Shown here: piece by piece, positions 1,675 to 59,446 of the stretch | Position numbering within the stretch: the stretch's first letter is position 1 | Layout of the letters: each line of letters starts with the position of its first letter | Assembly: GCF_963921235.1 (NCBI RefSeq) | Contig: NC_086108.1 | Span: 83,826,001 to 83,890,000, forward strand | Source of the DNA: Mobula hypostoma | Lineage: Eukaryota | Direction: 5' to 3' | DNA length: 64,000 nt | Made by a program: the position numbers and the translations under genes | The notes under the pieces: model-generated | The model's input: the letters and a program-made list of their open reading frames with translations, nothing else | What the model was told of the DNA's origin: nothing | Database searches by the model: none

Positions 1675-1854
1675 CAACAGGAATTCTGCAGATGCTGGAA
1701 ATTCAAGCAACACACATCAAAGTTGCTGGTGAACGCAGCAGGCCACGCAGCATCTCTAGGAAGGGTCCTGACGAAGGGTCTCGGCCTGAAACGTCGACTG
1801 TACCTCTTCCTAGAGATGCTGCCTGGCCTGCTGCGTTCACCAGCAACTTTGATG
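1675..1854. mobile_element. Fold-back Penelope pLTR-derived mini-element with central hammerhead
   Basis: Inverted arms 1715-1763 and 1806-1854 match 48/49. 1765-1854 matches the Penelope 3' end 53199-53288 at 89/90. Flanking repeats caaattaccaatt (1662-1674) and caaattagcaatt (1855-1867). Confidence 0.9.
1764..1799 (+). ncRNA. Minimal type I hammerhead ribozyme
   Basis: CTGACGA (1768-1774), stem II agg...cct, GAAAC (1788-1792), GTC with predicted cleavage after 1795; stem I ggtc/gact. Confidence 0.85.
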
Positions 1855-2489
1855 CAAATTAGCAATTTATCAGTTTATTAATTCACCAGACTGAATAATG
1901 GCCCTGTACTTGGAAATGTACATTCATCTAAGTCCTGTCTCACTTAAAACATTGCTCAGTAGCTGAAAGGATGAAAGGAATAAATTCTACAGCCAATAAT
2001 AAGAGGACAGTGAATTTTAAAACAAATACAAATTTCCAAGCTTAGTAAGAAGGCTTTCAAAGATCGGGCTCTAAATATCCTCTTCATGCCATGGTTTGGA
2101 AAATCCCCCTGGAGCATCAGACAAGATTATATCATTGCCCAACACTTTTGTCAAACTTTCTTGCTGCAGTGTTATACCTCACCTCCAACTAACGTCCCCT
2201 GGCAGTGGTGATAAACTTCAGGGCCAATGGGCAACTGTTCAATCTACAATCCAGAATCAAGTGTACCCAAACCTCATTAGCTCTTGATGCTTATGTTTGT
2301 AAATCCTTAAAGGTTAAGCCATTGTCATCTTGTTCACTTTAAGATTGTGGGCCCTACATACAATAGCTTCCAAGACCAGCCATCTTAACCAGCTCATCCC
2401 TACTGACCCCCGCTGTTCTCCCACAATTAAGGCTCATGGAGAAAAAGCCTCTCATATATTAGGAGACACTTCTTGGTGAAAGCCTTTAG

Positions 2490-2950
2490 AATCAGAATCA
2501 GGTTTTAATATATAAACAATATATTAAAATTACTAAAACTTACAATATAAAATATTAAAAAAATTAAAAATAGTGAAAAAACAGAGCAAGATCGTGAGGT
2601 ACTATTTATGGATTCATGGACCATTCGGAAATCTGTTGGCAGAAGGGAAGAAAAGTTCCTAAAACATTGAATCTCTGTCTCCAGGCTCCTTCGTCTCCGT
2701 TTTGGTGGTAGCAATGAGAAGAGGGCATATTCTAGGTGGTGGGGTTCCTTCATGATGGGTTGCATCTGAATTACAAATATTTAAGGCAGAGGTAGATAGC
2801 TTCTTGATTGGTCAGGGTATAAAGAGACACAGGGCGAAGGTAGGAGATTGGGGCTGAGAGGAATAATGGATCAGCCATGATGAAATGGTGGAGCAGACTC
2901 AATGAGTCAAATTGCCTTATTCTGCTCCAATATCTTATGGTCTTATGGTC
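2490..2950. mobile_element. Rex-like LINE 3' end (-) followed by CR1 3' end (+)
   Basis: (agaatc)n tail and the peptide EPHHLEYALFSLLP on -; 2775-2950 is a CR1 3'UTR ending ctgctccaatatcttatggtcttatggtc. Confidence 0.6.
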
Positions 2951-4510: not shown

Positions 4511-4514
4511 TTTA

Positions 4515-15700: not shown

Positions 15701-15727
15701 TAAGTAGTGCAAAATTAGAAATAAAAA

Positions 15728-16449: not shown

Positions 16450-17715
16450 AAACCTACCGACACCCACGGCTATCTTGACTATACCTCATACCACCCTGTC
16501 GCCTGTTAAAATGCAATTCTCTTTCTCATTTGCTTCATCTGCGCTGCATCTGTTCCCCGGGTAGCTTTCCTTGCCAGGACATCCTCCTCCTTCAAAGAAC
16601 AGGGCTTTTCATCCTTCACCTTTGGAGCTGCCCTCACCCATATCTCCTCCATTTCCTGGCCATCCATTCTCATCCCATCTTCCCGTTGCCTGAACAGGGA
16701 TAGAGTTCCTCTTGACCTCACCTACCACACCTTGAGCGTCCACATCTGGCATATCATTTTCCACAATTTTTGCCATTTTCAATGGGGCCCTACATCGAAC
16801 ACATTTTTACCTCTCCCACCTCCATCTTCCACAGGGATCTCTCCCTCCATGATTCCCTTGTCCATTTGCCCTGCTCCATTTATCTCCCTCCGGCCACTTA
16901 TCCCTACAAGTGGAAGAAGTGCAACACCTGCCCATTCACCTCCTCCCTCAGCTCCATTTGGAACCTCAAACAATACTTCCAGGTGAGGCATTACTTCACC
17001 TGCAATCTGTTGGGGTCACCTACTGTATTGTGTGCTCATGATGCGGCCTCCCCTACTTTGGTGACACCCGATGAAGGTTGAGGGTCCCCTTTGTCGAGTA
17101 CCTTTGATCCATATGCAAAAAGCAGGATTTCCTGGTGGACAACCATTTTAATTCCGATCTCCATCCCATTCCGACATGTCGGCCTTCTCTACTGCAATGA
17201 TGAGGCCACTTTCAGGTTAGAGGAACAACACCTCATATTCCATCTGGGTGGCCTCCAACCTGATGGCATGAACATCAATTTCTCCAACTTCTGGTCATTT
17301 TCCCTCATCTCCCTTCCCTCTTCTCCAGTTCCCCATTCTGCCCTCCCTCTTACCTCGTTTCTTCTCTTCGTCTATCTATCATCTCCCCCAGGTGCCCCTT
17401 CCCCTGCCCTTTTTTCCATGGTCCACATTCCTCTCCTACCAGATTCCTGCTTCTCCGGCCCTATTCCTCCTATCATCCCCTGGCTTCTTTCTTCATCCCC
17501 TCTCTCCCACCCACCAGGCTTCACCTATCACCTTCTAGCTTCTATTCCTTGCCCTCTCCCACCTTCTTATGCTGGCTTCTTCACCCTTCCTTTCCAGCCC
17601 AAAATATCAGCTGTTTATTCATTTTCATAGATGCTTCCGGACCTGCTGAGTTCCTCCAGCATTTTGTGTGTGTGTTGCTCTGGATTTCCAACATCTACAG
17701 AATCTCCTGTGTTTA
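16450..17715 (+). mobile_element. Decayed Penelope (Neptune) fragment with pLTR; hammerhead core deleted
   Basis: KWKKCNTCPF and LEEQHLIFHLGGLQPDGMNINFSNF are homologous to 51601..52917; pyrimidine-rich 3'UTR and pLTR tail. Confidence 0.85.
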
Positions 17716-18110: not shown

Positions 18111-19263
18111 ATCATTCCTCAGCATTTAGCCATTTAACCCCAGAAACATTTTTCTGAATCTTTGATTATTAAATTTAAAACTCATCTTGAGAAATTGCAT
18201 AGCAGGCTATGGAACAATGGCTAGTAACTGGGATTAGTTTAGACATAGTGGGCTGGAGTTCTTGTTTTGGTGATGTTTGACACCATGGTAGAAATCAGCA
18301 TTCAGTTCCTTATGAGTGTAGGAAGCAACACCAATACAGTGACTGATGTACAGAAAAAAAGTTGAGAGGGGGGTCCAGGTAGGTTTAAATAGAATTGCTC
18401 AATGATTATGATAATGAGATAGGCATCACTCAGGTCCATGTGAGTTCCCATTGCCGCACATTAGATTTGAAGAAAGAGAGTGAGAGACGGAAGTTGAAAT
18501 AGAAAATGTCCCTAAACCGCTGACCTCCACGCGACTCCCAAAACCATCCCTACAAACTTAAAAAACAACTAGCGCTGAGCTACGACCTTGACAGACATTG
18601 CAGCCCAGTGCCATCTCGACCGGTTCTGTGTTTGAGGAATGTACACAGGCTGAAACAACACATCTACTGAATTAGAAACTCCCAAACAGTCATGATTGAA
18701 TGCTTTGGATGGAAGCTCTGCTGAAGCTAACTCACAGCCAATTTTAAAATTGTTCAGGGAGAGGAAACTTAACTTGAAATTAGCTTCCTATCATGATGTT
18801 CTGGAGTAACAAAAAAGGTCAAATCTATTTTGATTATTTAAGCTTTGGGTAATTTTGACATTGTGCTCGTTTGATATCGTTCATTCAGTGTATCTAATGT
18901 TTGGCAGTTTATATTGTACTGTTTTATTTTGGGTGAATTAGTCTGATAGCTGGATACATTTAATGGGTTCTGTATGAATCAGTAACTCCATTAGTACAGG
19001 CTATGCTATACAGGCTTAATAATTGGTATTTGATGGTTTCTACATTGGCTGGTGCTTCAGTAGATTGGTTCTAAACGAGTTCTATGCTTTTTCAAGTTCT
19101 GTATTGATTTTAGGTGTAGAATGGTTAGCTTTATACTGTCGAGATTCCATGAGGGGTAGGTAGGTTGCATGTTTGATGAATTTTTGTCTTCCCTCATTGG
19201 GTAGCAGAGACAGTAACGAGTTTAGCATCATACAGTAACATTGATACTAACTGGACTATTTTG

Positions 19264-19366
19264 AGTCCTGCTGAGGGTTTTGGACCAAAACATCAACTGT
19301 TTATTCTTTTCCATAGATGTTGCCTGGCCTGCCTGAGTTCCTCCAGCATTTTGTGTGTTTTGCTTG
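19264..19366 (+). mobile_element. Solo Penelope pLTR with degenerate hammerhead
   Basis: agtcctgctgagggttttggaccaaaacatcaactg...gatgttgcctggcctgcctgagttcctccagcattttgtgtg. Confidence 0.75.
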
Positions 19367-22300
19367 AGTTAACAGAAACCCTAACTGAGAAAACATCCAG
19401 AGAAGAAATGGAATTGAATAGTTAGTGACACAGTTTGAAACACATAATTGGGGAGAAAGAAACTTGTGGGATGATTTTTATTTCAACCTCCCTGCACTGT
19501 CAGTAAACAAGTAGAGCATTTGAAAATGCAAACTAATTGTTGTTACTAATGTGAATGAATCAGCCAATTCATTCCACCAGGTGGCAATCATCTACACTAC
19601 AAGTTGTTTACAAAGCTAAAAGGTTTGTTTTAGAAAATAAATGTTAAAATTTACAATGTTGAAGGGTGAAAGCTAGCAAGGGGAAAAACAGCAGCCAGCA
19701 ACTTGAGTGCAATTGAAAGACAAATCCACAAAGGTTATAGTTTGTAACTTGTTTGAATTGCCTAAAATTGCTTATCAGAAGCAACTCAACCAGCAATGTT
19801 GTCATAGGATCATTCAGTTAATTGTAAGTACAAGTGGCAGGAAGAAATGGGCATCTTGGGTGGAAGAAGATCCTGCTATCTTTCCTAAAATGAGTCCCTA
19901 GCAGAAGACTTTACAAGTCCTTGGGATAAACTCAGTGGAAACATCATGAAGGTAAAGGTCAAAGATTTTTAAGGTTGTGAAAAGAAGGGAGAATCTCTTC
20001 CAACAAGTAGACTGTAAACACACTGAACTAACTTTGTTGTAACATGCAGAAATGTCCCTGGTTCAGTCTTTGGTCTGCATGGCTTTTGATCTTAGCTGGA
20101 TTGAAAATGGCTTCTTGTATGAAGTATGCTTGTAAATGTTCAGATCAAGAGGAGTGTCTGTTACGTCTGGGGTTAAGGGACTGGATCTTTTCAAAACAGC
20201 AGTAAAGGAGAAAAAGAAAAAAGTATTGTCATTAATGAAATGTGTATTCCCATGCCAGATCACTAAGAGCATGTTTTTAAAATCCACCTGAAAGACAATA
20301 TCCTGAGGCTGGATATGGGACAGTACATTTCCCCCATAGGAGAATCTGGAGCCAACAGTCATTGTTTTAAAAGTAAGTGGATGGCATTTTTTTCCCTCTA
20401 AGGATTAGCTTATTTTGGTACTCACTTCAGGTGGTAGAGGAAGCAGAGAATTCAAATATTCCTAAGACAAAGTACATAGATTCTTAGTGCTGAGGGAGAG
20501 TTATCATTAAATTGACAGCTTGCTAATAGTTCAAAAACAAAGAAATTTGATTTAAAATGTTACTAATAACACTTTTTTGAAGTAAATTGTGGTAAACTAT
20601 CACAGCAAACAACGAAGAGGTGAGTGAAGGCAAAGTGAATTCGAGAGATGAGCCATGTTGGTGTGTAGCGTTATTGACACACGTGGAGTTGGGGCTGTGC
20701 TAGTTAGAGTGAATGATTTACAGAGGAGCAGTCAAAGCAGAGAATTCAGATACCTGTCCAACTAACCCGGGTGTGAGGGTGGATCCGATTTGATGAGGTC
20801 GGGAAAGGGTTTTTTTAACAGCAAAATCTAGGCCCAAAGTGAATCGCTGGACGGTGTGTTCTAGGCCCTGAGAGATTCGCTGAAGCAGACCCCGGTCCTA
20901 ATGCGAGGTACAATCCACTGTTCAAGCAATTTAAATGCCGGCCCAGATAGACTGGGAGCTCCTCTCCCCATGATGCTGAGGCTGCGAGACTGCCCCGGCT
21001 GCTGTGCTTCGTGTCTGCGAACTTTGCAATGATTTGCGCCGCTAATATGATGAACTGAATACCAAGGGCCTACTCCAGGCTGCTCCATAGATTTGGATCC
21101 AAGGACTCAATTTGGATTGGAATGCTGCTGTTGCTTGCTTCCATTGTTTGAATGATTTGTATTTTTTTCTCTCGTTCTTTGTGCATTGGGGGTTGGACTT
21201 TTATATCTTTCTTTCAGTGAGTTCTTTTGAGCTTCTTGCTTTGCGGTTGCCTGTAAGCAGATAAATCTCAGGGTTGTATAATTTATGCATACCTTGATAA
21301 TAAATGTTCTTGAATCTTACTGAATGATGAAAGTAAGCTCATTAGGCTGAGTGATTCTTAATTCAGATCTAATTATTGCCTCACTGCTCTGGCTATTGGT
21401 TACATCTGTTTCTCTTCCTGGCTTATTCCATCAGTTGAATAGTTCATTGAATTAGTTCATTGAAATGAATTGTAAAAATAGTATTCTCTGTGGTGTCTGC
21501 TGTGACGATTTGGAGTCGGCTTCCTATGCCAGGATAGCATCCAGTTACAGAGCCAAAGTAAACACCTCTTGTTATTTGACTGTCATTCCTTCAGCTGAAA
21601 ATTCAACTTTGGGAATAGCAAGCATTGGGTGGGTTCCAGCCTCCACCCTCCCTGGCTGGCTGCTCAGCTGGTTATTGGCAAAATGGAGAAAAATGTCATT
21701 TGTTCAACATTCTGCGAGCCAACACTGAAACCAAAGTAAGACCAGGACCAACATTGCCTCTTTTGTTTTAAACAGCAAATTGATTCCCCTCAAATTATTG
21801 ACATGACTTGTGGTTGGTGCCCCATATCAGTCACTATGGTAACCCACTGGCCAAAGCTTCTCAACCCAAAGACCTATATACCCGCACAGTTTTCTGGCTG
21901 CTATCCAATCCTCAATCCAAGCCAGTACATTATCCCCAATGTATGGACTTTAATTTTGTTAAATAACCCAATCTGACACTTTATGAAGGGCTTGAAATTT
22001 CATATACTGTATATCATGTCAAAAACTTTATCTATGCTTTGGAATGAATACCTCAAAATCAGATTTGTCCCATAATTTCCCCTGTGCATGTTCACATCGG
22101 CTCTATCCAACCCTATTATCTTCCCGCAGATGCTGGAAATCTGAACTGGGAACAACATGACCTTCTGAGAGGGTGAAATACTAAACTGACAATTTAAAAT
22201 CAATTAATCAGATTAACCTTTGTCTATGTAATGTATTGCTGATGTCTGTAGAGTGTAGTTTATTCTGGCCAGCTTGATGTCTGCAGAGTGTGAAATATGC

Positions 22301-22468
22301 TAACCATCTTAGACATGCCAGAAAATGTAACATTCAAGGAGGTGGAGATGCAGAGAAGGCAGATTCTGGAATCCAGAGTGCAGGACAACGGGATGGAAGA
22401 ACTCACTGGGTTAAGCAGCATCTGGTGAGAGGTTTGGAGGGTAGGGTTGAGACTCTAATGCAGGGTCT

Positions 22469-25400
22469 GTAGAATTAGATAGCATTCCTGCAGGGTTAGT
22501 GTTTTGCTCAGGGTGTCAGATGTGGGAATCCTGGGAGACCTCCAGCCTCCCTCATGGCCACATCTGCGCCAGGTGCACCGAGATGCAGCTCCTCAGAGAC
22601 CGTGTTAGGGATCTGGAGGCAGCTTGATGACCTACTGCTTATCAGGGAAAGTGAAAAGTTGATAGACAGGAGCTACAGGGAGGTGGTCATCCCTAAGGTA
22701 CAGGGGTCAGAAAACTGGGTGACTCTCAGGAGTGGGAAGGAAAATGCCCAAATAGTGGAGAGCACACCTGTGGCTGTCCCCCTCGGCAACAAATATCTTG
22801 TTCTGGATGCTGTTGAGGGGGATGACCTGACAGGGGATGCCCACGGTGACTGGGTCTCTGGCACTGAGCCTGGGGCTGTTGTGCAGGAGGGAAGGAGGGA
22901 GAAGAGGAATGCAGTAGTCATAGGGGATTCCATAGTCAGGGGAACGGACAGGAGATTCTGTGAGCCTGATAGAGATACCCACATGGTGTGTTGCCTCCCA
23001 GCTGCCAGGGTATGGGATGTCTCGGATTGGGTCCAGAATATTTTGAAGGGAGAGGGCGAGCAGCCAGTTGTCTTGGTACATGTTGGTACCAATGACATAG
23101 ATAGGAGAAGGGAGGAGGTCCTGAAGAGAGATTTCCGGGAGTTAGGAAGAAAGCTGAGAAGCAGGACCTCCAGGTTAGTAATCTTGGGATTGCTACCTGT
23201 GCCACGTGCTAGCGAGGGCAAGAGTAGTCGGATCAGGCAGATGAATGCGTGGCTGAGAGACTGGTGTAGGGGGCAGGGCTTCAGATTCTTAGATCATTGG
23301 GATCTCTTCTGGGGGAAGTATGACCTGTTCAAAATGGATAGGTTACACCTGAACCCGAAGGGGACTAATATCCTGGTGGGAAAGTTTAATAGAGCTGTTA
23401 GGGAAGGTTTAAACTAATTTGGCAGGGGGATAGAAACCAGAATGATAGAACGGAGGAAGGGGAAAACAGAAATAAATCTAAGATAGAGAGCGGTAAAGAT
23501 GTCAGGAAAGATAGGCAGGTGATGGGGCAAATTTGTAGCCATTGGGATGAGTTGCAGTGCAATTAAGTTGCAGTGAAATCAAAATGAAAAGTACCAAATA
23601 CTGGTCTTAAGGTGTTAAACTTAAATGCACGCAGCATAAGGAATAAAGTGGATGATCTTATTGTACAGCTACAGATTGGCGGGTATTATATTGTGGCCAT
23701 CACTGAGACGTGGCTAAGGATGCATGTCTCTGGGAGCTGAACATCCAAGGATACGAGGTGTATCGGAATGATAGGAAGGTAGGCAAAGGGGGTGGTGTGG
23801 CTTTACTGGTAAGAAATGATATCAAATCATTAGAAAGAGGTGACATAGGATCTGAAATGCAGAATCTTTATAGGTTGAGCTAAGAAATCGCAGGGGTAAA
23901 AGGACCCTGATGGCAGTTATATACAGGCCTCCAAACAGCTGCAGTGATGTGGACTACAAATTACAACAGGAAATAGAAAAGGCTTGTCAGAAGGGCAGTA
24001 TTATGATAATTGTGGGGGATTTCAACATGGGAGTGGATTGAGAAAATCAGGTCGGCACTGGATCTCAAGAGAGAGAATTTGTAGAATGTCTATGACTTGG
24101 CTTTTTAGAACAGCTTGTTGTTGAGCCCACTAGGGGATCGGCTGTACTGGATTGGGTATTGTGCAATGAACCAGAGGTGATTAGAGAGATTGAGGTGAAG
24201 GAACCCTTAGGAGGCAGTGATCATAACATGATTGAGTTCACTGTGAAAGCCAAAATCCGATGTGTCGGTATTTCAGTGGAGTAAATGAAATTATAGTGGC
24301 ATGAGTGAGGAACTGGCCAAAGTTGACTGGAAAGGGACACTGGCAGGAAGGACGGCAGAGCAGCAGTGGCTGGAGTTTATGCGAGAAGTGAGGAAGGTGC
24401 AAGTCAGGTATATTCCAAAAAAGAAGAAATTTTTGAAAGGAAAAAGCATGCAACCATGGCTGACAGGAAAAGTCAAAGCCAAAGTTAAAGCAAAGGAGAG
24501 GGCATACAAGGAAGCAAAAATTAATGGGAAGACAGACGATTGGGAAGTTTTTAAAAGCTTACAAAAGGAAACTAAGAAGGTCATTAAGAGGGAAAAAATG
24601 AACTATGAAAGGAAGCTAGCAAATAATATCAAAGAGGATACTAAAAGCTTTTTCAAGTATATAAAGAGTAAAAGACAGGTGAGAGTAGATATAGGACCAA
24701 TAGAAAATGATGCTGGAGAAATTGAAATGGGAGACAAGGAGATGGCGGAGGAACTGAACTGGTATTTTGCATCAGTCTTCACTGAGGAAGACAGCAGTAT
24801 ACCGGACACTCAAGGGTGGCAGGGAAGAGAAGTGTGCGCAGTCACAATTATGACAGACAATGTACTCAGGAAGCTGAATAGTCTAAAGGTAAATAAATCT
24901 CCCGGGCCAGATGGAATACACCCAAGTGTTCTGAAGGAAGTAGCTGTGGTTCTGGAGGACTGGAAGATTGCAAATGTCACTCCGCTATTTAAGAAGGGGG
25001 TGAGGAAGCAAAAAGAAAATTATAGACCTGTTAGCTTGACATCGGTGGTTGGGAAGTTGTTGGAGTCGATTGTCAAGGATGAGGTTACGGAGTACCTGGA
25101 GGCAACTGAGAAGATAGGCAGAACTCAGCATGGTTTCCTTAAAGGAAAATCCTGCCTGACAAACCTATTACAATTTTTTGAGGAACTTACAAGTAGGCTA
25201 GACAAGGGAGATGCAGTGGATATTATATATTTGGATTTTCAGAAGGCCTTTGACAAGGTGCCACACATGAGGCTACTTAACAAGATAAGAGCCCATGGAA
25301 TTACGGGAAAGTTACATACGTGGATAGGGGTTGGCTGATTGGCAGGAAACAGAGAGTGGGAATAAAGGGATCCTATTCTGGTTGGCTGCCAGTTACCAGT

Positions 25401-26403: not shown

Positions 26404-26589
26404 CAATCTGAAACACCAACTATTCCCCTCAACATGCTGAGTTCCTTTAGCAGTTTTTGTTTATTCCAGGTAATAAAACTTTGATTGCACAGCAGTCATC
26501 TTCCTTCCCACATGGACAAACTTGTTTATCTTTGTTCATTCATAAGACCTCTGATGTCCTCTAAAACTTTGTCCATTTCCATTTCCCTG

Positions 26590-38262: not shown

Positions 38263-40552
38263 GTATCTCTTGCAGGGATAAGTACCTGGAGGCTGATTAG
38301 TGAGAAGGAAGAAATGGACCAGGGAGTCAGAGAGGGTGTGACCCTTGTGGAAAGTATGTGGAAGATAAAATTATATTTAGTGGTAGGCTCCCTTTGGAGA
38401 CGGAGAAGTTGCGGAGAACGATGTGTTGGGTGCAAAGGCTCACAGGGTGGTAGATATGAGTAAGGTGGTGGGAAGATGGGGTGAGCGCGGATGTCTGGGA
38501 AATGGAGGAGATGCAGGTGGGGACGGTATCAACAGTGGAGGATGGGAAACTGTCCTTTAAAGAAGGTCGACATCCTACTGTTGTTTGCTTCAATTGTTTG
38601 TATGATTTTTAATGTTTTTCTCTTGTGCATCAAGTGTTGGTCTTTAATTTTCATTTTTCTTCTTTAATTGGGTTCTTTCAGGTTTCTTGCTTTGTGGCTT
38701 CCCATGAGCAAGCAAATCTCAAGGTTGTATAATTTATACATTCTTTGACAATAAATAAGTCTTGAATCTCTGACGTCATAAGATATAGGAGCAGCTTTAG
38801 GCCATTAGGCCCTTTGAGTCTGCTCCACCATTCAATCATGGCTGATCCTTTTCTCCCCCCCACTCCTCAGCCCCAGTCCCTGGCCTTCTCCCTATGACCT
38901 TTGATGCCATGTCCAGTCAAGAACCTATCAAGCTCTGCCTTAAATTTACCCATAATCCTGGCTTGCACGGCTGCCTGTGGTAATCAATTCCACAAATTCA
39001 CCACCCTCTAGCTAAAGAAATTCCTCTCCTGAAAAGCCTCATCCTGAGGACAGAGGTGGCGAAAACAAAGGAACTGAGAAAAAGGAATAGCATTTTTATG
39101 GGAGACAGGGTGGGAAGGGGTCTAGTCAAGATAACCATGGGAGTCAGTAGGTTTATAAAAGATATCAGTTGACAATCTGTCTCCAGAGATGGAGACAGAG
39201 ATCGAGAAAGGGGATGTGTCAGAAATGAACCAAGTGAATTTAAGGGCAAGGTTGATGAAATTGATGACTTCAGCATGGGTGCCTGAAGCAGCACCAATTC
39301 AGTTGTCAACATAGCAGAGGAAGAGTTTGGGAATATTCCCAGAGAAGGCTTGGAACATGGACTATTCTATGTAGCCAACAAAAAGGCAGGCATAGCTGGG
39401 GCCCATGTAAGTGCCCAGGGCTACCCCTTGAGTCTGGAGAAAATGGGCAGACTGAAAGGGGAATTGAATATGAGGACCAGTTCCACCAGATGGAGAAGGG
39501 TGGTGGTGGTGGAGGGGAACTGATTGGGTCTGTGTTAATAAAGAAGCAGAGAGCTTTAAGACCTTCTTGAAGGGGGGATATAAGTGTCTAGGGACTCGCC
39601 ATCCATGGTAAAAATGAGGTGGTCTGGGCCAGGTAATTGAAAGTTAGTGAGGAGATTGAGAGCATGAGATGTTCGTGAGTGTAGGTGGGAAGGGACTGAA
39701 CTAAGGGGGAGTTGAGGAACAAGGACACAAATTCAGTGGGGCAGGAGCAGGCAGAGACAATTGGTCTACACAAACAGTCAGGCTCTTTGATCTTGGGTGG
39801 GGGTGAAAGCGAACAGTGTGAGGTAAAGGAACTATGAGCCTGGTGGCAGCGGGGATAGGAGTTCTCCAGTGTTGATTTATTGTTGCTCCTGGTACAGCCG
39901 CCTCTGCATCAGTGAGACCCGACGTAGATCTGGGGAACACGTTGTCAAGTACCTTCGCTCGGTCTGCAACGAGCAGTATGTCCCGGTGGCCAATCATTTT
40001 AATTCCACTGCCCGTTCCCATTCCCACATATCGGTTATTGCCTCCTCTACTGCCTCGATGAGGCTGGAGAAGCAACACGTCGGTCCATTGCCTCCTCTAC
40101 TGCCTCGATGAGACTGGGTAACCTCCAACCTGATGGCATGAACAGCGATTTCTCCATCTTCCAGTAATTTCCCCCCTCTTTTTTCCCATTTGCCATTCTT
40201 GCTTCCCTCACCCCTTCTCTTTGCCTCACTTGCCTATTACATCCGTCTGGTACCCCGCTCCTTCCTTTTCTCCTCTTATAATAATTTATTTTGTTCAGCA
40301 CGACATTGTAGGCCAAAGGGCCTGTCCAGTGCTGTCCTATACTATGCTCTCCCATGGTCCACTCTCCTCTCCTATCAGATTCCTTCTGCTCCAGCCCTTT
40401 ACCTTTTCCATCTGTAATCTCCCAGGTTCTCACTTCACTCTCCCTCCCTCACCCACCTGCCTTCCCCCTCGCCTGGTTTCACCTACCACCTTCTAGCTGG
40501 TCCTCCTTCCCCTCCCCCCCCCACCTTTATTCTGGCCTCTTCCCCCCTTGTC

Positions 40553-40588
40553 ACTCCTGATGAATGGTCTCTGCCTGAAACGTCGGCT
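40553..40588 (+). ncRNA. Hammerhead with intact core but weakened stems
   Basis: CTGATGA (40557-40563) ... GAAAC GTC (40577-40584) in a Penelope pLTR. Confidence 0.6.
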
Positions 40589-41031
40589 CTTTATTCCTCT
40601 CCATAGACGCTGCCTGGCCCGCTGAGCAGTTTCACCTCTGGCGTTTTGTGTGTGTTGCTATGGATATCTTTGCCAGGCCCTAGCAACTGTTTCTCTGGTT
40701 TCCCACAAGGCCCTGGGATACGATTGGTCAAGTGCTGGAGATTTATCCACAGTTATTCACTTAGGACCACCAGCACCTCTTTCGGTAATGTGGATGTGTT
40801 TCAAGAGTTCATTATTCTTTCCCCTGAATTCCTTAGCTTCCATGACCTTCTCCGCAGTAAATACAAATGAGGTAATTTAAAACCTTGCTCATCTCCTTTG
40901 GCTTCACATATAGATGATCCTATTGATCCTGATAAAGGTACTATTTTCTCCTTGGTTGTCCTTTTGCTGTTGATATATTTATAGAATCTCATGGATTTGT
41001 CTCTCCTCTTATCTGGCAAGGCTATTTTGTA

Positions 41032-41202
41032 AACAAGAGAATATCTGCAGATGCTGGAAATCAAAGTAATTTACACAAAATGCTGGAGGAGGTCAGCAGG
41101 CCAGTGGGAATCAGTAAACAGTCGAAATTTCGGGCCACATAATGCAAAACTCTTCATCAGGCCTGGCCTACTGAGTTCCTCCAGCATTTTCTGTGTATTA
41201 CT
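41032..41202. mobile_element. Fold-back pLTR mini-element with perfect 14-bp TSD
   Basis: TSD aaggctattttgta at 41018-41031 and 41203-41216. Minus-strand CTGATGA...GAAAT TTC gactg; inverted arm gcctggcctactgagttcctccagcatttt. Confidence 0.88.
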
Positions 41203-41285
41203 AAGGCTATTTTGTATCCTCTCTTTACCCTCCTGATTTCCCTCTCAGAGCCTTGCACTCAAGGGAATTACTTGATCAAAATATG

Positions 41286-41392
41286 AGTTCTGATGAAGGG
41301 TTTCAGCCGGAAACGTCCACCGTTAACTCTTTTTCACAGATGCCGCCTGGCCTGCTGAGTCCCTCCAGCATTTTGTTTGTGTTGCTCAGATT
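41286..41392 (+). mobile_element. Solo pLTR with intact hammerhead core
   Basis: CTGATGA (41290-41296), agggtttcagccg, GAAACGTC (41310-41317); stem I mutated. Confidence 0.75.
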
Positions 41393-42058
41393 TACTTACC
41401 CCTGCTGCCTAAATATATGCTTCCTTTCTCCTTTCCAGAACTAGTTAGAGCTATATTATCATTGCTGAGGATAACTGGAGCCTCAATGTGCTTTGTGAAC
41501 AAGGGTTCCCTGGGTTGTGACTGATTGATTAAAAATTAGCTATATGCCAACTGTAACTGGGAAATATAAAGGTCTTTATTCACACTGTAAACACTCAGGA
41601 GAGAGTCTATCAGAACCACTTTGAATCTTCATTACTGCTGTCTTTTCTGAAAGGTTCAGGGCACAAACTCCAGACACCCAAAATACACATACCCTTTTTG
41701 TTACAGTGTTGAGAGAGAGAGTTTTATACTCAAGGCAACTCAAATGTTAAGTCACAAAATAGATCTCTCATGAACTCTGCATTATGTGGCAGAGATGTGC
41801 CTTTAATGATGTGTTTTACAAGAGATGGTCACTTAGTGCCTTCCCTGATCTCAGTCTAAAGGTTTTAATGATCAATGATTAACATGAACATCTAGTCTGA
41901 GTTCTGAAACTAGATGTTTGTTCATTTCCATGAATGACGTCTGACCTGCTGAGTTCCTCCAGCACTTTGTGTCTGTAACATTCTCACAAGTGAATCGGTT
42001 TCACTAGCCTTAAGGTATCAGTTGAAGTTAAATTGTTGAACAAGTTTTATTTTCTGAA

Positions 42059-42200
42059 CACAGATTTCTGCAGATGCTGGGAAACCATAGCAACACACAC
42101 AAAATGCTGATGAAGGGTCTCACCCCAAACATCAGCTGTTTATTCTTTTACATAGATGCTGCCTGCCTGCTGAGTTCCTCCGGCATTCTGCGTGTCTGGC
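42059..42200. mobile_element. Fold-back pLTR mini-element
   Basis: Reverse pLTR arm fused through 'ctg' directly to CTGATGA (42107-42113); G12 position mutated. Probable TSD tttattttctgaa (42046-42058) / tttatcttctgaa (42214-42226). Confidence 0.75.
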
Positions 42201-42690
42201 AATGTGTTTAGTCTTTATCTTCTGAAGGCTGGTTCTGATTTGGATCTGCGGTATTCTATCCCTAACACCCTGATCTGCCATGCTCTCAAAAAGAAACAGA
42301 CTGGCCCTGAACTCTGTTTCACTTTGGAAAGAGATGTGAGTGTTAAATATGAGCTGTTGCATTTGATAGCCGTTATTGGTAGGCAAGAGATGGACATGTA
42401 TTTTACAATGTCTGGAATAGTGGAGCTTATCAGTTAAACCCCCAGGAAGATATACAAGTGGAAGTAAACATCCTCTGCTATACAAGCAGAGGTCTAAAGA
42501 ACAAAAGGAGGAAATAATGGTGAACAGTTATCACTTACAGGTTAGTCCCTAGCTGGGACTTTTTTGGAAAAATTGGTGAGGGGGAATTTGAATATCTAAA
42601 ACTATAATACATATGTCTACATACTTGAACATAGAATTGTACTGGACAGTTCAGATACTTAATTTCACATAGTTGTGCTGACCCATACCC

Positions 42691-50440: not shown

Positions 50441-52917
50441 ATCGCCTCCACAATTAGTCTGGCTGCAGCTTCTCCACAAACTGCCACCGTCTCCCCTTCC
50501 CCCACCACCACTCTGCAATCCCGTCTCTCTCAGATCCCACTGTCAGCTCCTGGGTCCTCAGAGGCTCCACCTTCCTCTCACCCCAACCCTCCCCTCTCCA
50601 CTGACACACCCAGCCTCCCCCCTCCCCCCTCCCCCTCTGATCCCAGCTCTCATCCGTGCCGGGTCTTTACCATCCCCTCCGACCTTCAACTGTCGGAGGC
50701 AGAACGCTCTGTTCTCAGTAAGGGCCTCACGTTTGTCCCCCTTCGCCCACACCTCAGCGAGTTCCGTGTTCACCATGACGCGGAACTGTTCTTCCGTCGT
50801 CTCCGTCTCCGAGCCTACTTCTTCGGCAAGGACTCTTCCACCCCCACCGATGACCCCTTCTCCCGTCTTCAACCCTCCTCCTCTTCATGGACACCCCGCT
50901 CTGGTCTTCTGCCTGCTCTGGATCTCTTTATCGCTAACTGCCGGCGGGACATCAACCGTCTCGACTTCACCGCACCTTGTTCCCATTCCAACCTCACTCC
51001 TTCGGAACGCTCTGCTCGCCACTCCCTCCGCACTAATCCTAACCTTATTATTAAACCCGCTGATAAAGGGGGTGCTGTTGTAGTCTGGCGTACTGACCTC
51101 TGCCTTGCCGAGGCACAGCGACAACTCGCGGATACCTCCTCTTATTTACCCCTCGATAGTGACCCCACTAAGGAGCACCAGGCCATTGTCTCCCACACCA
51201 TCACCAACTTTATCCGCTCAGGGGATCTCCCATCCACTGCTACCAACCTTATAGTTCCCACACCTCGCACTTCCCGTTTCTACCTCCTACCCAAGATCCA
51301 CAAACCTGCCTGTCCTGGCAGACCTATTGTCTCAGCTTGCTCCTGCCCCACCGAACTCGTTTCTGCATACCTCGACACGGTTTTATCCCCCCTTGTTCAA
51401 TCCCTTCCGACCTATGTTCGTGACACTTCTCACGCTCTTAAACTTTTCGATGATTCTAAGTTCCCTGGCCCGCACCGCTTCATTTTCACCATGGATGTCC
51501 AGTCCCTATATACTTCCATCCCCCATCAGGAAGGTCTCAAAGCTCTCCGCTTCTTTTTGGATTCCAGACCTAATCAGTTCCCCTCTACCAAGTCCGTCTA
51601 GTGGAATTAGTCCTTACTCTTAATAATTTCTCCTTTGGCTCCTCCCACTTCCTCCAAACTAAAGGTGTAGCTATGGGCACCCGCATGGGTCCGAGCTATG
51701 CCTGCCTTTTTGCCGGCTTTGTGGAACAATCTATGTTCCGAACCTATTCTGGTATCTGTCCCCCACTTTTCCTTCGCTACATCGACGACTGCATTGGCGC
51801 TGTTTCCTGCATACATACTGAGCGCGTTGACTTTATTAACTTTGCCTCCAACTTTCACCCTGCCCTCAAGTTTACCTGGTCCATTTCCGACACCTCCCTC
51901 CCCTTTCTAGATCTTTCTGTCTATATCTCTGGAGACAGCTTATCTACTGATGTCTACTATAATAAGCCTACTGACTCTCACAGCTATCTGGACTATTCCT
52001 CTTCTCACCCTGTCTCTTGCAAAAATGCCATCCCCTTCTCGCAATTCCTCCGTCTCTGCCGTATCTGCTCTCAGGATGAGGCTTCTCATTCCAGGACGAG
52101 GGAGATATCCTCCTTTTTTTTTAAAGAAAGGGGCTTCCCTTCCTCCACCATCAACTCTGCTCTCAAACGCATCTCCCCCATTTCACGCACATCTGCTCTC
52201 AGTCCATCCTCCCGCCACACCACTAGGAATAGGGTTCCCCTGGTCCTCACCTACCACCCCACCAGCCTTCAGGTCCAACATATTATTCTCCGTAAATTCC
52301 GCCACCTCCAACAGGATCCCACCACTAAGCACATCTTTCCCTCCCCCCGCCCCCCTGCTTTCCACAGGGATCGCTCCCTACGCGACTCCCTTGTCCATTC
52401 ATCCCCCCCCCCCCCATCCCTTCCCACCGATCTCCCTCCTGGCACTTATCCTTGTAAGCGGAACAAGTGCTACACATGCCCTTACACTTCCTCCCTTACC
52501 ACCATTCAGGGCCCCAGACAGTCCTTCCAGGTGAGGCGACACTTCACCTGTGAGTCGGCTGGGGTGATATACTGCGTCTGGTGCTCCCGATGTGGCCTTC
52601 TATATATTGGCGAGACCCGACGCATACTGGGAGATCGTTTTGCTGAACACCTACGCTCTGTCCGTCAGAGAAAGCAGGATCTCCCAGTGGCCACACATTT
52701 TAATTCCATATCCCATTCCCATTCTGACATGTCTATCCACGGCCTCCTCTACTGTAAAGATGAAGCCACACTCAGGTTGGAGGAACAACACCTTATATTC
52801 CGTCTGGGATATTCCGTCTGGGATATTCCGTCTATTCCGTCTGGGATATTCCGTCTATTCCGTCTGGGTAGCCTCCAACCTGATGGCATGAACATTGACT
52901 TCTCTAACTTCCGCTAA
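50441..52917 (+). pseudogene. Penelope RT/GIY-YIG ORF broken by one frameshift near 51590
   Basis: ORFs 50327..51601 and 51601..52917 are consecutive halves of one protein. Confidence 0.9.
52795..52868 (+). repeat. Tandem microduplication (atattccgtctggg / attccgtct units), net +60 nt
   Basis: Read directly; the native C-terminus GSLQPDGMNIDFSNFR* stays in frame. Confidence 0.9.
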
Positions 52918-53197
52918 TGCCCCACCTCCCCCTCGTATCTCATCCGTTATTTGTATACACACATTCTTTCTCTCACTCGCCTTTTTCTCCCTCTGTCCCT
53001 CTGACTATACCCCTTGCCCATCGTCCGCGTTCTCCCCCTTTTCCTTCTCCCCAGACCTCCTGTCCCATGATCCTCTCATATCCCCTTTGCCAATCACCTG
53101 TCCAGCTCTTGGCTCCATCCCTCCCCCTCCTGTCTTCTCCTACCATTTCGGACCTCCCCTCCCACTTTTAGATCTCTTACTAGCTCTTCCTTCAGTT

Positions 53198-53233
53198 AGT
53201 CCTGACGAAGGGTCTCGGCCTGAAACGTCGACT
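53198..53233 (+). ncRNA. Minimal type I hammerhead ribozyme in Penelope pLTR
   Basis: agtc-CTGACGA (53202-53208)-agggtctcggcct-GAAAC-GTC (cleavage after 53229)-gact; palindromic ACGT stem III. Confidence 0.88.
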
Positions 53234-53309
53234 GTACCTCTTCCTAGAGATGCTGCCTGGCCTGCTGCGTTCACCAGCATCTTTGATGTGTGTTGCCACC
53301 ATCCTGTGG

Positions 53310-53965: not shown

Positions 53966-56900
53966 GAATCTTTGTGACTTCTATCACAAGCTTGTAATTT
54001 AGAGGATTATAAACCATTCCTTAAATTCTATTACCTTTTAAATTTTGCAAGAATAATCCACTAGGTGGTGAATTTGCCTTTTGGCCGCAGCTACAGAAGT
54101 CAAATAACCAGTTTAGTCAACATCAGGTTTATTATTACCGACATGCGTTGGGAAATATGTTTTGCAGCAGCAGTATATTGCAATACATAAAAGAAAATTA
54201 CTAGAAGTCACAATAAGAAATATATTTAAAAAGCAGTGCAAAAAGTCAGGTAGTCATGGTTTTTGTTTACTAAGATGGCGCGCAGAATAGCAACCCTTTT
54301 TCGTGCAGCTCCTTGATTTGAAACGTTGGAACAATTTTGCTCCTAAAACCAGAACTGTAAATATAAATCCCACTTAAGTGTATAGACAAGGACCTCAATC
54401 ACCAAGGCATAGGAAGGCTAGAGACCACATACTAATAACTGGAGTTTAGCATAAATAAATAGTTGATTTGTGTGGCCACAGAGGCTGTTTCTTTGCTATA
54501 TGATTCCACAACCCAGATGTACCGTAATTCAGTTTTGCACAAATTACATTGTCCTTCCAATGTGGAACCATGTTGGAATTGAGAACCAAGTTCAAAGTAA
54601 TCTAAGCTCTGTGATCCATTGACTCAGTGGGACGGAGAGCAAAAGATATCTGTGCAGTCTGTATTTGGGTATTTTGGAGTAAATTGTTTTTCTCAGATCC
54701 CTCTTTCTGATGAATATCCAACTATTATTTCTTTTATCAGTTTTTTTCAAACCAAAGTCAAAGCGATCTTGGGTACTTGAAATCTAATAACAAATGACCT
54801 GTTTGCATTGCTGATGTAAACAGTTAACAATCCTTTCAGATTTGACACATTATTACATCTTGAATCCAGTTGGTGGTACTGCAGGGGAGTGAATGGAGGG
54901 GGGGTGCCTAAAATCCCAATTAGATATTGTTACTTAACATGATGTTCCATGGTCCAATTTCTGGGTGGGTAGAAGAGCTGCAGTGTTGTTTCCTATGCTG
55001 TGGATGATCACTGTGCATGTTGCCTATCAGTTGGCATTGTTTGAAGGCAAAATTTTTAAATTCATGGCTGAGTAAGGAGAGAATAGCTTGGGATCAAGCA
55101 TAAGACTCGTCTGTAGTAGCTATGACACTGAAGCAATTCCAGTGATGGTAGTTAATGTCCCACAGGAAAAGAACAAATCAGGTGGTAGATGTAAATTGAC
55201 ATTGTTTCTTTGCGTTTTTCCGATGATGCTTTGGAATTAAGGCTTGTGGAATCTGCCCACAGATTTTAAGATGTATTTTCTGTTTATGGCTACACTGTTA
55301 CTGAATCAGCTTCAGATTAATCTTGGAAGCCCATCCATAAGAGATCTTCCACAGGAGAATTCCTCTTTATATTCTCCCGCACAGAAATATGGTAAATTCT
55401 ATCAAATTTGGACTAGGGAATAAATAGGGAGGCAGGATCTGCATTTTGGGAAGGTTCCCAAGGTAAATGTTGTAGAAGCTGGCTTTTTCTTTGGTAAAAT
55501 ATTTTCTGACAAAATGTTCTGTCAGCTTTTTATTGGAAATTTGATTTAGCAATACAGGAGTCCAACATATCTGGGATCTGCACACCTCCTTTCCAATGCT
55601 TGGATTTCCAGCATCTGCAAATTTTCTCTCGTTTGTGATTGGATCACATCTCCTTTTCCAAATGCTCAGCAGGTTCATTTGAATGTGCTTACACACTTGT
55701 TTATTTTCTCCCCAGGAAGTCTGTGCTAAACACAGTTTTAAGGACCCAGTCCAGAAATCTTGCCAGACAGCCCTTAGGAATCACAATCTCCGGATTTATT
55801 TGTAAAGTCTGGTGAAGGAGAAGGGCAATGAGCAATTTAGAGAAGTGTCTTAGTCGGAAGGGGAAAAGTTAATTGGGAAGAGGGGGCAGCTGCTGGAGTG
55901 AGTAAGAAGATGTGAGGAGGCGAAGGCAATTTAAGCCAAAAAAAACTTTGTATCCTGTCAAAGTCTCAGTTTAAAGGAAAGGGTAGCCAAGGTAATGGGT
56001 GGGGTGAATGATAAGAAAAATGGATTGGCGAAGGCCAGTTATTCTTGAGGTGCACAGTGGAGATGGGATGCATCTTGGGTTGCTGGTAGGAGTGGGAGGA
56101 AATTGCATAAGAACTGCCTATATTCTTCTAATGCTCTTTACACACAAAGAGTCAGGGGACTGAAAATGGTAAATGCTCTGGCCTTTGATTTTAAAAGAAC
56201 AATCAAAGACAAGTCCAGCCACCACAGGCTGTTCAAAAACTCTTCAGTCTCCAAAGGTTTTCTTGTCATGCAGTGAATGAGATTTTAAACGAATCATTTC
56301 ACCTTGTGAAGCAGAAATAATGAGAATAGTCAAACTCTTTGCATAGTATCACAAAATTTATTTGAAATATCTTAAAATACTGCTTTGGAAAAGCTTTGTT
56401 TTACAGAGGTTTAGTGTTGACATTCTGCATGATTGAGATTAAATTACATTATTTTTAAAAAATGCTGTCAGAGACATGGCCCCACATTTCACTTCAAATA
56501 AATAGGATCTTATATCTGAAAAAGGATGAGGTTGATAAAAAATAAATAAATAACTTAACTATAATAAATATTTTGCCTAATAAGTTTCTTTAATGCAAAG
56601 AGATGCATAGCATCCAACATGGCTGGCTTGTGCTCAAGACAACTATTAGAATTGTTTGTACACGTGAGCAAATTTATTGGTGGTCTTTTGGCTTAATGAT
56701 TCTCACAGGCCATTCACTTCATTGGAGCCTTTTTAAAACAGACCCTTTTCTGTTGAGAGTGAATTCATATGCATTTGGAAGTCTTAGAGATGATATGAGC
56801 TTCAGTATTGGATTCAACTGTTAACCTGTTTCATTTGTACACATTCCCATCGAAGGGGCAAAGATCAAATCTCGTACCAGACACGGCATTTGAGCATGAA

Positions 56901-59312
56901 TTTGCTAAAGATGTGTTTTACCTGAATGATCCTTCAAATGACAGACTGATTGTGGAAATGCAAGTCCATTAACCAATGCTAATGTACATGTTACAATATT
57001 TATTGAGGGGTGGGGAAACAAAGGGATCATTTTATGATTATATAGTGATAGGGTCTCTTGTAGTGGGATAAGACTTTTATCCTTTCCATGTTTTAGTTCA
57101 AAGTCCATTATATCGAAGATGCAAAAAATGTTTCTGGGTAGAAAACGCTACAGGGAGAATGACAGGGTTATTTAAAGCTGAGGCACCTAATGTCTTGTAC
57201 AACTGCCCACAGCCAGTCACTAACTAATAATAACACAGGCCATGAGCCATGTGTCTGTCCAGAGCAAGCACTGAATGATCACATAAGAAAACAAAAACTG
57301 TAATCAGGTTTTTCAAGTGTACCAGTAAATGGGAATTCCCTTTGGTAGGTTTCAGATCATTTCACTAAATTGTGATAACTGTAGCACCCTTGTGACTAAT
57401 ATACCCCACACTAAGTTAATTGGGGTGGAATTCAATTTTGGTAGCAGCTCAAAAGTCACAGGCCACATTCCACACCTTGCCTAATATTTTCATTTATTGA
57501 CATGTGGCGATAATGGCCACTTGCCTGCCTTTGATTTTTGTGTCACCACAATTTGCAGCCCAGCACTATTAATCAGACTTCCCTCATTCCTTTGCAACTA
57601 GCTGAACTTGAATTCAACATACATTTTGTCTTTGCAGTTAGAGACTGTCCATGTCACCAGAAACAATGAGGAAGCTGCTTTACAGCATAGTCAAATTACT
57701 GAAATACAGATTAGTATTTTGGGAGTCTTGTATTTTTGATCTTTAGTCTTTTAACCTACTGGCAATCCAACAATTATCTCTTGAACCTTCACTGGCTTTT
57801 TCAAAGAGTGAACCTGTCTGCCTTTTCTCATTCCTTATTTGTGGTTTATCATTTTCATAAGGATCAATTTAATATGGGTTAGGGAGTGGAATTATTTTTA
57901 CAGCGTGGCTCTAGAAATTTTTATATTATCCGTTGAGAATTTTGATCTGGTTTGCTGTCTGTAGAAACTTGCTTATTGAAAATTACTGCCACAGTTGATA
58001 TCATTACACTCTGCAATTAATTCATCTTGTGTGACACTAAGTTTCTGGTGGGTATAAGGCACTGTACAAACCTAAACGTTCCTGTATTTTTTTTACTCAC
58101 ACCGATAGAGCATTTTATTTTTGTCTATGCCATAAGCCAAACTTGTATATGACAGAAAAGTGACTTGAAATTTGGTACCAAAACAAATTTCATGTCTTAG
58201 TCACGAATGTGGAAAAAGTCCGAGACGAAGTCATTTATGGAGAAAATAAACTACAGTCAGATATGAGGACCATCAATTTTAATCACTCCACTACTGACCT
58301 AATGCAGTGAAAGCCACAAGATCTAGGCGTTACTACTTATCCTCTCGTTCCTTTGAAAGCAAGTCCTTTGAGTCTTCCATTGTGGCTTCCAGTATCTTTG
58401 TTGATAACAATACCATTAAGTGCTCTGGAATGCTTTACAGTATTGACTGCTATAAAAATGCGAAGTTTTCTTTATTAATTTAGTCTCCTTTGTTCCTTGG
58501 AGTCATGCCACAATAATGCCAAATTTAAAAAGAAACGGGTGATATTCATTAAGGATCAGTGTGCACTAAAGAAACCACCAATGTTTGGCAACCATTTAAA
58601 AATGTCCAACATGGCCACTTTGCTCAGTGAAGTTTTACAAAAATTCACCCAAGCTGCTCACTAATGTCCATAGTTCTGATGAATTTCATGAGACCAACGT
58701 TTGTCATTATTTGCTCAAGGATTTTAACTAAAAGTATTGCATTCTCCTTTTGATGTTCACTCCTGCTTAAGTCCAGTGCACCAAAAATCTCGGGAACACA
58801 AGTTGTCTGATAATATTGTACTTGGTTTGCACTAATAACCAAAGATTTTCTGAGTCAAAGGTTTCACAGCCTATCTAAAAATATACATATATAAAATATT
58901 TACTGATGGAGTTAACTAACTAAGGAGTCACTTCTATTCCATCATTTCCAGTGAGATGGATTACAGAACTATCAAATCATCGAAGATGTTTTCTTTGTTC
59001 TGGTAAGTTATTTTTAATGGGCAGTCCCTCAGTATTGAGGATGATTTGTGTTTCCACTCTGATCTTTGGGCTCGCTAGCTTCTTCAGAGCCCATTGTTCA
59101 CAGATAGGGCAGGGAGCCTAATTCACAGGGAGGGTGGGCTGTTTGGGAAGTGGTATTAAAGCTTGGGTGAACTAATAACAACATCCTCTCCCAGGACTGG
59201 GGCCCTAGCTACACTCAGTCTTGGCCTGCACCAGATTCCCAGAGATGTATGCCTCTGTAGAGGTGGCGATAACCAGAGAGAGGAGGGGGGAAAAGGAATG
59301 AAGGGTGTGTTC

Positions 59313-59446
59313 AAAAACATAAGAGATTCTGCAGATGCTGCAAATCCGGAGCTATAGATGCAAAATGCTGGAGGAACTCAGCAGGTTAGGCAGCATCTAG
59401 GGAGAGGAATAAACAGTCAATGTTTTGGGCTGAGACCCTTCAATAG
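59313..59446 (-). mobile_element. Solo Penelope pLTR with degenerate hammerhead; a decayed V-SINE follows to ~59720
   Basis: Reverse complement reads ctattgaagggtctcagcccaaaacattgactg...gatgctgcctaacctgctgagttcctccagca. Confidence 0.75.

Follow-up and report, generated by a model that had tools for sequence, protein, structure and literature searches.

Short fold-back elements recur across a 64,000-nucleotide stretch of the Mobula hypostoma genome (NCBI RefSeq assembly GCF_963921235.1, contig NC_086108.1, positions 83,826,001 to 83,890,000 of the forward strand; hereafter the window), each made of two pseudo-long terminal repeats (pLTRs, the arm unit) in opposed orientation, and the question is whether they are a mobile family of their own or something left behind by another element. 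A preliminary description, made from the sequence alone, regarded them as a retrozyme-like, non-autonomous hammerhead family that depends on a nearby Penelope-like element (PLE). The reading that we consider quite probable is that they are paired ends of Neptune-type PLEs enclosed by a target-site duplication (TSD), likely one-off and dead-end, with both cut ends of the target likely primed on the same RNA. The fold-backs are designated E1 to E5 (at 1675, 32210, 41032, 42059 and 22345, respectively; see Table 1). Element coordinates are counted from the usual end of the tailless arm (position 0), the tail ending at about +38, the ribozyme cut product starting from -64, and stem I of the hammerhead starting from -95.

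Head-to-head pLTR pairs and an empty site

The four head-to-head pairs noted at first, E1 to E4, are all present and follow one design, in which an antisense pLTR arm is followed by a sense arm and a single direct repeat encloses both. The direct repeats were also found with the lengths and mismatches noted before (Table 1); as a null, 150 random position pairs were searched with a generous window, among which four matched the score of E1 and E4 and one matched that of E2 and E3. For E1, four public DNA runs were compared with window 1280-2400, and an exact empty site was identified in a related species (run X20): bases 1-110 of a 606-nt contig correspond to window 1552-1661 and bases 111-606 to 1855-2341, with 1661 joined straight to 1855, and the missing 193 bp equal the 180-bp E1 plus one 13-bp repeat. 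The right junction of the E1 insertion is present in run X6, from a closer species; no empty allele for E1 was detected among the pieces listed for run X1, and run X19, which stops at 1661 and resumes at 1910 with no listed join, was not counted as an empty site. Since the repeat stands in single copy at the X20 empty site, the flanking repeats are TSDs, at least for E1. The TSD search gave no convincing repeat for E5 or for the solo arms at 19264, 30250, 41286, 41900 and 59313, and the 7-10-bp repeat flanking the Penelope copy at 50.5-53.3 kb is at chance level only. The proposal that E5 was split by a CR1 is plausible, since its sense arm continues colinearly from one side of the CR1 to the other, and falls short in its TSD. 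This CR1-type long interspersed nuclear element (LINE) is near-complete, with a GDSL-esterase frame and a reverse transcriptase (RT) frame, sits inside the E5 hammerhead, and has five identical bases at both flanks.

A hammerhead had been placed at the junction of all these elements, which turned out not to be so. After scanning both strands with a descriptor of the minimal type I hammerhead (core, stems I and II, and palindromic stem III), exactly two sites were found in the window, and these are the only complete ones, in E1 (1768) and at the 3' end of the Penelope copy (53202); the core is cut in E2, E3 retains the core letters without stem I, and GAAA is changed to CAAA in E4. An Rfam scan of the window gave no hammerhead family match, and a microRNA (miRNA) identity for E2 was rejected, the sub-threshold Rfam match reflecting merely its hairpin shape. 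The description as hairpins stands for E1 to E3 (fold z of -15.7, -9.6 and -6.6, respectively) and fails for E4 (42075-42212), which folds no better than shuffles (z 0.23). Among 19 sequences stems I and II are 76% and 93% paired, respectively, with no two-sided change and with covariation not above shuffles; the outer stem of -48 to -41 with the tail is paired, with no compensatory change seen, and the fold of the 5' region of one copy is not significant (z -1.8).

Partnership with the Penelope at 50.4-53.3 kb was not confirmed. Only E1 belongs to the same family (arms 96-99% identical to its pLTR), since E2, E3, E5 and the long arm of E4 are 71-84% identical to the 53.2-kb pLTR and belong to older pLTR families. 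Even for E1 the copy is a sibling: it lacks about 780 bases of the element's 5' end, its coding sequence falls into two frames and there is no tail, and because it is truncated, frameshifted and tailless it cannot be the source of the E1 tail. Its endonuclease-coding end carries repeated local duplications (window 52800-52870).

Junctions, tails and the shared template

Genome samples were analysed for the question of family or one-off, and all the one-tail counts given below are sample counts and not a genome-wide tally. The first 100 matches, in genome order, to the core of the young family gave 90 loci, composed of 36 fold-backs in which both 3' ends could be seen, 44 solos (29 without and 15 with a tail), six internal inversions and four loci cut by an edge. 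The 36 fold-backs have 36 distinct pairs of junction coordinates and measure 112-2596 bp (less than 300 bp in 28 cases), grading continuously into kilobase inverted copies. A TSD of 11-19 bp was found in 34 of the 36 (13-14 bp in 22 of these 34), and exactly one tail of about 40 nt is carried by every one (binomial p 3e-11 against 0.5). A content-blind sample of 664 kb gave 19 close pairs, all 19 head-to-head; after inspection of its 19 short pairs of all ages, 17 were found to carry one tail, where two pairs called two-tailed by the profile (E4 and one neighbour) proved to be over-extensions into the TSD and were counted as one-tailed. In an older family (30 loci), all four short fold-backs with both ends visible are one-tailed. 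Extrapolating from the 400-kb spread part, where 11 pairs and 54 further arms were counted, we estimate about 96,000 short fold-backs and about 565,000 loci in the genome, figures that are rough for the small counts behind them.

What held of the preliminary description is that the elements are retro-products of Neptune-type PLEs, with pLTR arms and genuine TSDs, and not miniature inverted-repeat transposable elements (MITEs) of DNA-transposon origin. The retrozyme-like non-autonomous family found no support: all 36 junctions are distinct, the lengths are continuous, the template region downstream of the tail is missing and few ribozymes are intact. We thus regard the fold-backs as likely one-off, dead-end insertion products and not as a family that spreads by itself. 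The minis end with the tail and would likely be unusable as templates because they lack the downstream RNA region, a need known from another PLE clade. Their structure is that of the canonical inverted PLE unit, an inverted 5'-truncated copy adjoining a direct copy, with a tail at one end and an enclosing TSD. It is not that of a non-LTR retrozyme, the arms being opposed, the complete core numbering one in E1 and none in E2-E5, and no common junction fixing the structure; nor is it that of a MITE with symmetric terminal inverted repeats and uniform structure, the arms being asymmetric retroelement ends of variable length. Two pairs of loci, L318/L319 and L115/L184, have matching flanks upstream of the arm and were probably duplicated along with the flank rather than inserted separately.

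The outer ends of the two arms are set apart in the 36 young fold-backs. Tailless arms end between -23 and +4 and tail arms between +31 and +47, with an offset of 33-63 nt, and the target microhomology at these ends averages 1.6 nt (tailless) and 1.1 nt (tail), means that stand without a control. The tailless arm reaches further 5' in 20 of the 36, the tail arm in 10, and both equally in 6; neither arm is a subset of the other, which rules out that one was simply copied from its partner. At the same time, minor alleles are common to both arms in 57 of 79 comparisons (72%), as against 20% in shuffles (0 of 2000 as high), and the same rare jump junction occurs in both arms at five loci (L232, L237, L239, L252 and L345). 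These shared features favour the origin of both arms from one template.

The inner, 5' ends of the arms cluster at -100 to -93 (20 of 116 arms). Among genome-wide patterns, pyrimidine-preceded starts at -95 number 3231 as compared with 1269 purine-preceded starts at -92, and 16 of 20 inspected cases of the -95 pattern are true ends. No excess of ends was detected where the ribozyme is predicted to cut (827, as compared with 733 at a distance of one base); 8 of 12 inspected cases there are point changes, and ribozyme cleavage was therefore rejected as the origin of the arm ends. The hammerhead thus lies at the junction because the cDNAs end just upstream of it or within it, and not because of cleavage. 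Splicing was likewise rejected as the cause of ends at -95: although the site follows an AG, the sequence upstream of inspected ends is flank or inverted arm, with no common exon. An extra G derived from a cap is not general among these ends. Ends between -88 and -106 were seen in 17 of 36 tailless arms and in 6 of 36 tail arms of the young fold-backs; tail arms more often stop short, as if second-made, displacing the first cDNA.

Jump-back units, mechanism and rival readings

Copies that read beyond the tail carry further information on the template. The motif just downstream of the tail has 734 matches in the genome, and the first 70 in genome order, representing 69 loci, were followed: 33 continue for at least 700 bases, 32 jump back and four do otherwise. 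The jump-back loci read 79-689 bases (183-244 in 20 of them) and then return to the 3' region, giving direct tandems with the layout pLTR, tail, about 100-250 bases of 5' region, and return to the 3' region. The jump junctions are distinct in 30 of 32, two occurring twice; two same-strand hammerhead-like cores were found in 6 of 16 units checked, and L243 and L336 show two identical jumps in succession. It is these direct tandems, and not the fold-backs, that match the retrozyme layout, and they do so much better.

The final 5' end coincides with the unit's own jump point within 2 nt at 5 of 29 loci (0.75 expected, p 0.0005), the set consisting of 27 of the 32 jump-backs with a measurable 5' start plus two longer jumpers; these matching ends lie at -96, -97, -118, -129 and -139. 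At L343, L358 and L357 the inverted arm also ends at the jump point. In long copies that pass the region a second time, stops in -81 to -130 occur in 4 of 25, while on the first pass they occur in 52 of 89 arms (Fisher p 2e-4), a difference to which selection for processive enzymes could contribute. Taken from sequence comparison, these patterns favour RNAs that are linear and have real 5' ends specific to each molecule, with a jump from one end to the other now and then. A start site near -96 would be plausible, given that the fly Penelope has an internal promoter and that the sequence at -96 presumably represents an initiator-like motif. Since many full-length copies run hundreds of bases beyond the unit end, tandem or circular templates also exist. 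The separate loci L245 and L246 have in common a jump from +208 to -167 together with a private deletion, which suggests that one mini unit or more went through a second round of copying. At L232 (1374-1822 in element orientation), the sense arm is one exact permuted round of the mini unit (from -83 round to -84) enclosed by a 12-bp TSD, the outcome expected from a single round of copying on a circular template.

Shared alleles, the pile-up of ends at the 5' edge of the ribozyme and the end-to-end jumps, taken together, favour two target-primed cDNAs on one linear RNA. The endonuclease would cut the two strands 13-15 nt apart, leaving the TSD that is seen. One target end would start reverse transcription near 0 and the other near +38, start sites of this kind being published, which gives the observed pattern of exactly one tail per element. 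Both cDNAs would usually run off or stall at the 5' end of the RNA just upstream of the hammerhead, mostly at about -95, where the pile-up is seen, and the two cDNA 3' ends would then be joined by some repair route, by means of the short homologies or few extra bases seen at the junctions. Solos would arise when only one target end gives cDNA. The hammerhead would be a passenger within the pLTR that does not set the junction. We hold more tentatively, as a proposal about as open to doubt as to belief and leaning slightly toward doubt, the fuller version in which a two-site enzyme makes a staggered 13-15-nt cut and primes the two ends, each at its own start site, on one linear RNA with molecule-specific 5' ends (mostly about -96, at an initiator-like motif on the edge of the hammerhead) and often short 3' ends (about +180 to +245), and in which a jump from the 5' end to the 3' end makes a two-hammerhead tandem in one step, that is, the birth of a retrozyme, with the minis as run-off siblings.

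Several points weigh against two primed cDNAs on one RNA. Frangieh et al. (PMC11167929), in the text available from that report, found no strand difference in the start site in vitro, and this counts against it because the strict one-tail rule needs a different site at each end. The rule itself has exceptions: of the 19 short pairs in the 664-kb sample one has two tails and one has none, and L270, a long pair of the older family, possibly has two. Equal inner ends with a palindromic or overlapping tip occur in 6 of the 36 young fold-backs, which snap-back of one cDNA also fits. The sharing of alleles could come about through one subfamily being active at a time, or through later conversion between the arms. 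Finally, L237 and L239 have in common a 622-bp inverted structure including both junctions at 96%, with unrelated flanks and different outer ends, which could mean remobilisation or repeated joining at microhomology.

The L237/L239 structure also speaks for the preliminary view of a non-autonomous retrozyme-like family, in which whole fold-backs are transcribed and the Neptune protein inserts them anew. The E1 junction, with the same extra G, appears in 9 of its 30 best matches, a set selected by the query, and two junctions occur twice each among 12 loci chosen by one pattern; non-autonomous PLE derivatives are published (PMC8557442). Yet the 24-base E1 junction has three exact occurrences in 3.48 Gb as compared with 65,433 for a 25-base core, and the nine copies are spread over four subfamily haplotypes, where about seven are expected by chance per 50,000 fold-backs. 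In the unselected sample every junction is distinct, with a continuum to 2.6 kb. The outer ends lie at reverse-transcription start sites, which a re-copied unit would not regenerate, and neither the missing downstream region nor the broken ribozymes suit such a cycle, so that we consider it very unlikely. Somewhat less so, yet still quite improbable, is the formation of the inverted arm from a single cDNA that snaps back by self-priming or switches template, its far end then being joined to the target. This would make allele sharing automatic and would suit the six cases with equal inner ends, several with palindromic tips, and self-priming has been suggested as the origin of palindromic junctions in PLEs of rotifers (PMC3846280). 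The tailless arm, however, has extra sequence in 20 of 36 and the tail arm always has, so that deletion after fold-back would mostly be needed, and a second arm that ends at a start site with target microhomology is left unexplained.

Dual priming may also be right with a different cause for the -95 pile-up, namely a structure or a protein that halts copying at the hammerhead, the RNA being long or circular and having no physical end there. The pile-up falls exactly at the 5' strand of stem I, and the full-length copies that overrun the unit end are such as a circular or tandem template gives (model in PMC4209133, as far as its available text shows). A block of this kind does not agree with the scarcity of second-pass stops, subject to the selection noted above, or with the jump-back units that end at their own jump point, and we consider it unlikely, yet the most serious of these alternatives. 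Of practically negligible probability is the view that the elements are DNA-transposon MITEs or chance neighbours among solo pLTRs, suggested by small size, terminal inverted repeats and many copies. The arms represent the 3' end of an element that codes for RT and endonuclease and are made asymmetric by one tail, the close pairs of the 664-kb sample have uniform orientation, one TSD surrounds the pair as a whole and the match to the empty site is exact, and this view was rejected.

Source element, features of the window and known systems

An unbroken frame of 1043 residues was found in two of nine long genome copies fetched, at loci L257 and L260; these natural intact frames suggest recent activity of the source family. 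[quoted passage not shown] The element has the make-up of an endonuclease-bearing (EN+) PLE, with a single ORF for RT and GIY-YIG, a partial tandem that makes the pLTRs, and a tail continuous with the ORF start. The best named homologue of the protein is an uncharacterised shark protein (71%). A CX2-5CxxC zinc finger in the linker that joins RT to endonuclease is present in Neptune and Nematis and absent from Penelope and Poseidon, and the only PLE clades reported from vertebrates are Neptune and Poseidon; by the linker zinc finger and the vertebrate host, and not by an RT tree, we infer that the source element is a Neptune. Four long copies (L235, L332, L348 and L361) carry one and the same duplication inside the element (+924 back to +713) and represent a structural subfamily that has multiplied.

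Using a profile built from natural copies, we identified 20 arms at 15 loci in the window and none in the reversed sequence. The earlier figure of about a dozen hammerhead-derived loci was of the right order, the actual number being slightly higher; its four solo pLTRs (19264, about 30250, 41286 and 59313) are all present, and a short solo arm and a tail-only fragment are to be added (Table 1). As to the neighbouring genes, coding stretches of a rhodopsin-family seven-transmembrane (7TM) receptor lie at 6872-7912 (Pfam 7tm_1) and 12061-12717, about 5 kb downstream of E1, and we take this receptor to resemble a prostanoid EP4-type receptor. A TGF-beta-like domain at 62896-63366 (minus strand) presumably resembles a GDNF-family ligand.

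Table 1. Fold-backs, arms and related features (positions of the window, except for the last row)
Feature	Position	Strand	Remarks
E1 fold-back	1675-1854
E1 left TSD	1662..1674		13 bp, 1 mismatch to right copy; single copy at empty site of related species
E1 inverted tail-bearing arm	1675..1763	-	element +34 to -58; 96% to 53.2-kb pLTR
E1 tailless arm	1765..1854	+	starts at -95 after one extra G; 99% to 53.2-kb pLTR
E1 minimal hammerhead	core 1768-1795		in tailless arm; predicted cut after 1795; sole complete one among the minis
E1 right TSD	1855..1867
Tailed 3' end of longer, older Penelope-like copy	17503..17715	+
Solo pLTR arm, older family	19262..19367	+
E5 probable old fold-back	22345..26470		tail arm about 22345-22454 (minus); tailless arm 22455-22468 and 26404-26470 (plus)
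CR1-type LINE splitting E5	22469-26403
Solo pLTR arm, decayed	30248..30328	+
E2 fold-back, older pLTR family	32210..32386		tailless inverted arm left, tail arm right; hammerhead core cut
E2 TSD	32195-32209 / 32387-32401		15 bp, perfect
3' end of longer, older Penelope-like copy	35069..35265	-
3' end of longer, older Penelope-like copy	40464..40667	+
E3 fold-back	41032..41202		tail arm left (41032-41160, minus), short tailless arm right; hammerhead core letters present, stem I absent
E3 TSD	41018-41031 / 41203-41216		14 bp, perfect
Solo pLTR arm	41284..41390	+	hammerhead core letters kept, stem I broken
Short solo pLTR arm	41915..41978	+	absent from the preliminary description
E4 fold-back	42059..42213		short tail arm left, tailless arm right, joined via short overlap; hammerhead core mutated
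E4 TSD	42046-42058 / 42214-42226		13 bp, 1 mismatch
Neptune-type Penelope-like copy	50487..53296	+	5'-truncated, frameshifted; tailless 3' pLTR; hammerhead core 53202-53229
Tail-only fragment	55597..55636	+	absent from the preliminary description; possible 12-bp TSD (1 mismatch)
Solo pLTR arm with tail	59314..59452	-
Direct-tandem mini units, examples	contig C1		L228, L229, L238, L242, L243, L247, L336, L343, L362; often with TSDs and a pair of hammerheads on one strand

How PLEs make inverted and tandem units, and how retrozymes arise, are stated in the literature to be open. The claim of a family is of little weight here, the architecture being published and the elements looking dead-end. 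The tens of thousands of young copies, on the other hand, make predictions countable (one tail, one template, run-off ends and self-jumps), and for annotation about 100,000 hairpins per genome could be mistaken for MITEs or miRNA precursors. A literature search, in which few subscription papers were covered, found no description of elasmobranch fold-back PLE ends, of a one-tail rule, or of dual priming or end-to-end jumps in PLEs.

In the twin priming of L1, both cleaved strands prime on one RNA and a 5' inversion results, with the second primer annealing upstream and the two parts not overlapping; in the fold-backs, in contrast, the same 3' end is repeated in each arm, and the two start sites are fixed and lie about 40 nt from each other. 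The following comparisons extend as far as the available text of each report. Dual hammerhead motifs on opposite strands at a spacing of 100-700 bp, together with numerous single motifs left by truncated PLEs, were described in 2014 (PMC4209133); those hammerheads agree with ours in the bulged base before stem II, the loopless palindromic stem III and the short stem I, and differ in that most copies here are broken, while elasmobranchs are not named in the available text. Animal non-LTR retrozymes are direct tandems with at least two same-strand hammerheads, and one chondrichthyan genome is reported to contain them (Cervera and De la Pena 2020, PMC7229834; Li, Clavereau and Pollet 2026, 10.64898/2026.07.22.740005). 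The fold-backs resemble them in being non-coding, pLTR-related and hammerhead-bearing with larger TSDs, but are inverted and have at most one core predicted to work.

For Poseidon of Anolis carolinensis, Frangieh et al. 2024 (PMC11167929) observed in vitro that both target strands are cut and extended, that two internal RNA start sites bound the tail and downstream RNA is required, and that ribozyme cleavage is unneeded for insertion, with no RNA ends at the ribozyme cut site. The two start sites flanking the tail, the extension of both strands and ends away from the ribozyme cut agree with our reading of the fold-backs; the clade is different, with a linker zinc finger here, and the available text neither derives the inverted form nor describes end-to-end jumps. 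The closest agreement is with the canonical EN+ PLE insertion, an inverted 5'-truncated copy plus a one-sided tail of 30-40 bp (Craig et al. 2021, PMC8557442; Arkhipova et al. 2013, PMC3846280), in the head-to-head pLTRs, the one-end tail that is the ORF start, the TSD of the whole unit and the variable 5' truncation. Here, in contrast to the rotifer examples, the inverted units are mostly 110-300 bp and the TSD is 13-15 bp instead of 8-10 bp, and relative to those reports about 100,000 short fold-backs are estimated, with one-tail frequency and template sharing quantified. The fold-back architecture is thus a published form of PLE insertion and not a new family, to which the mechanistic record obtained here adds value.

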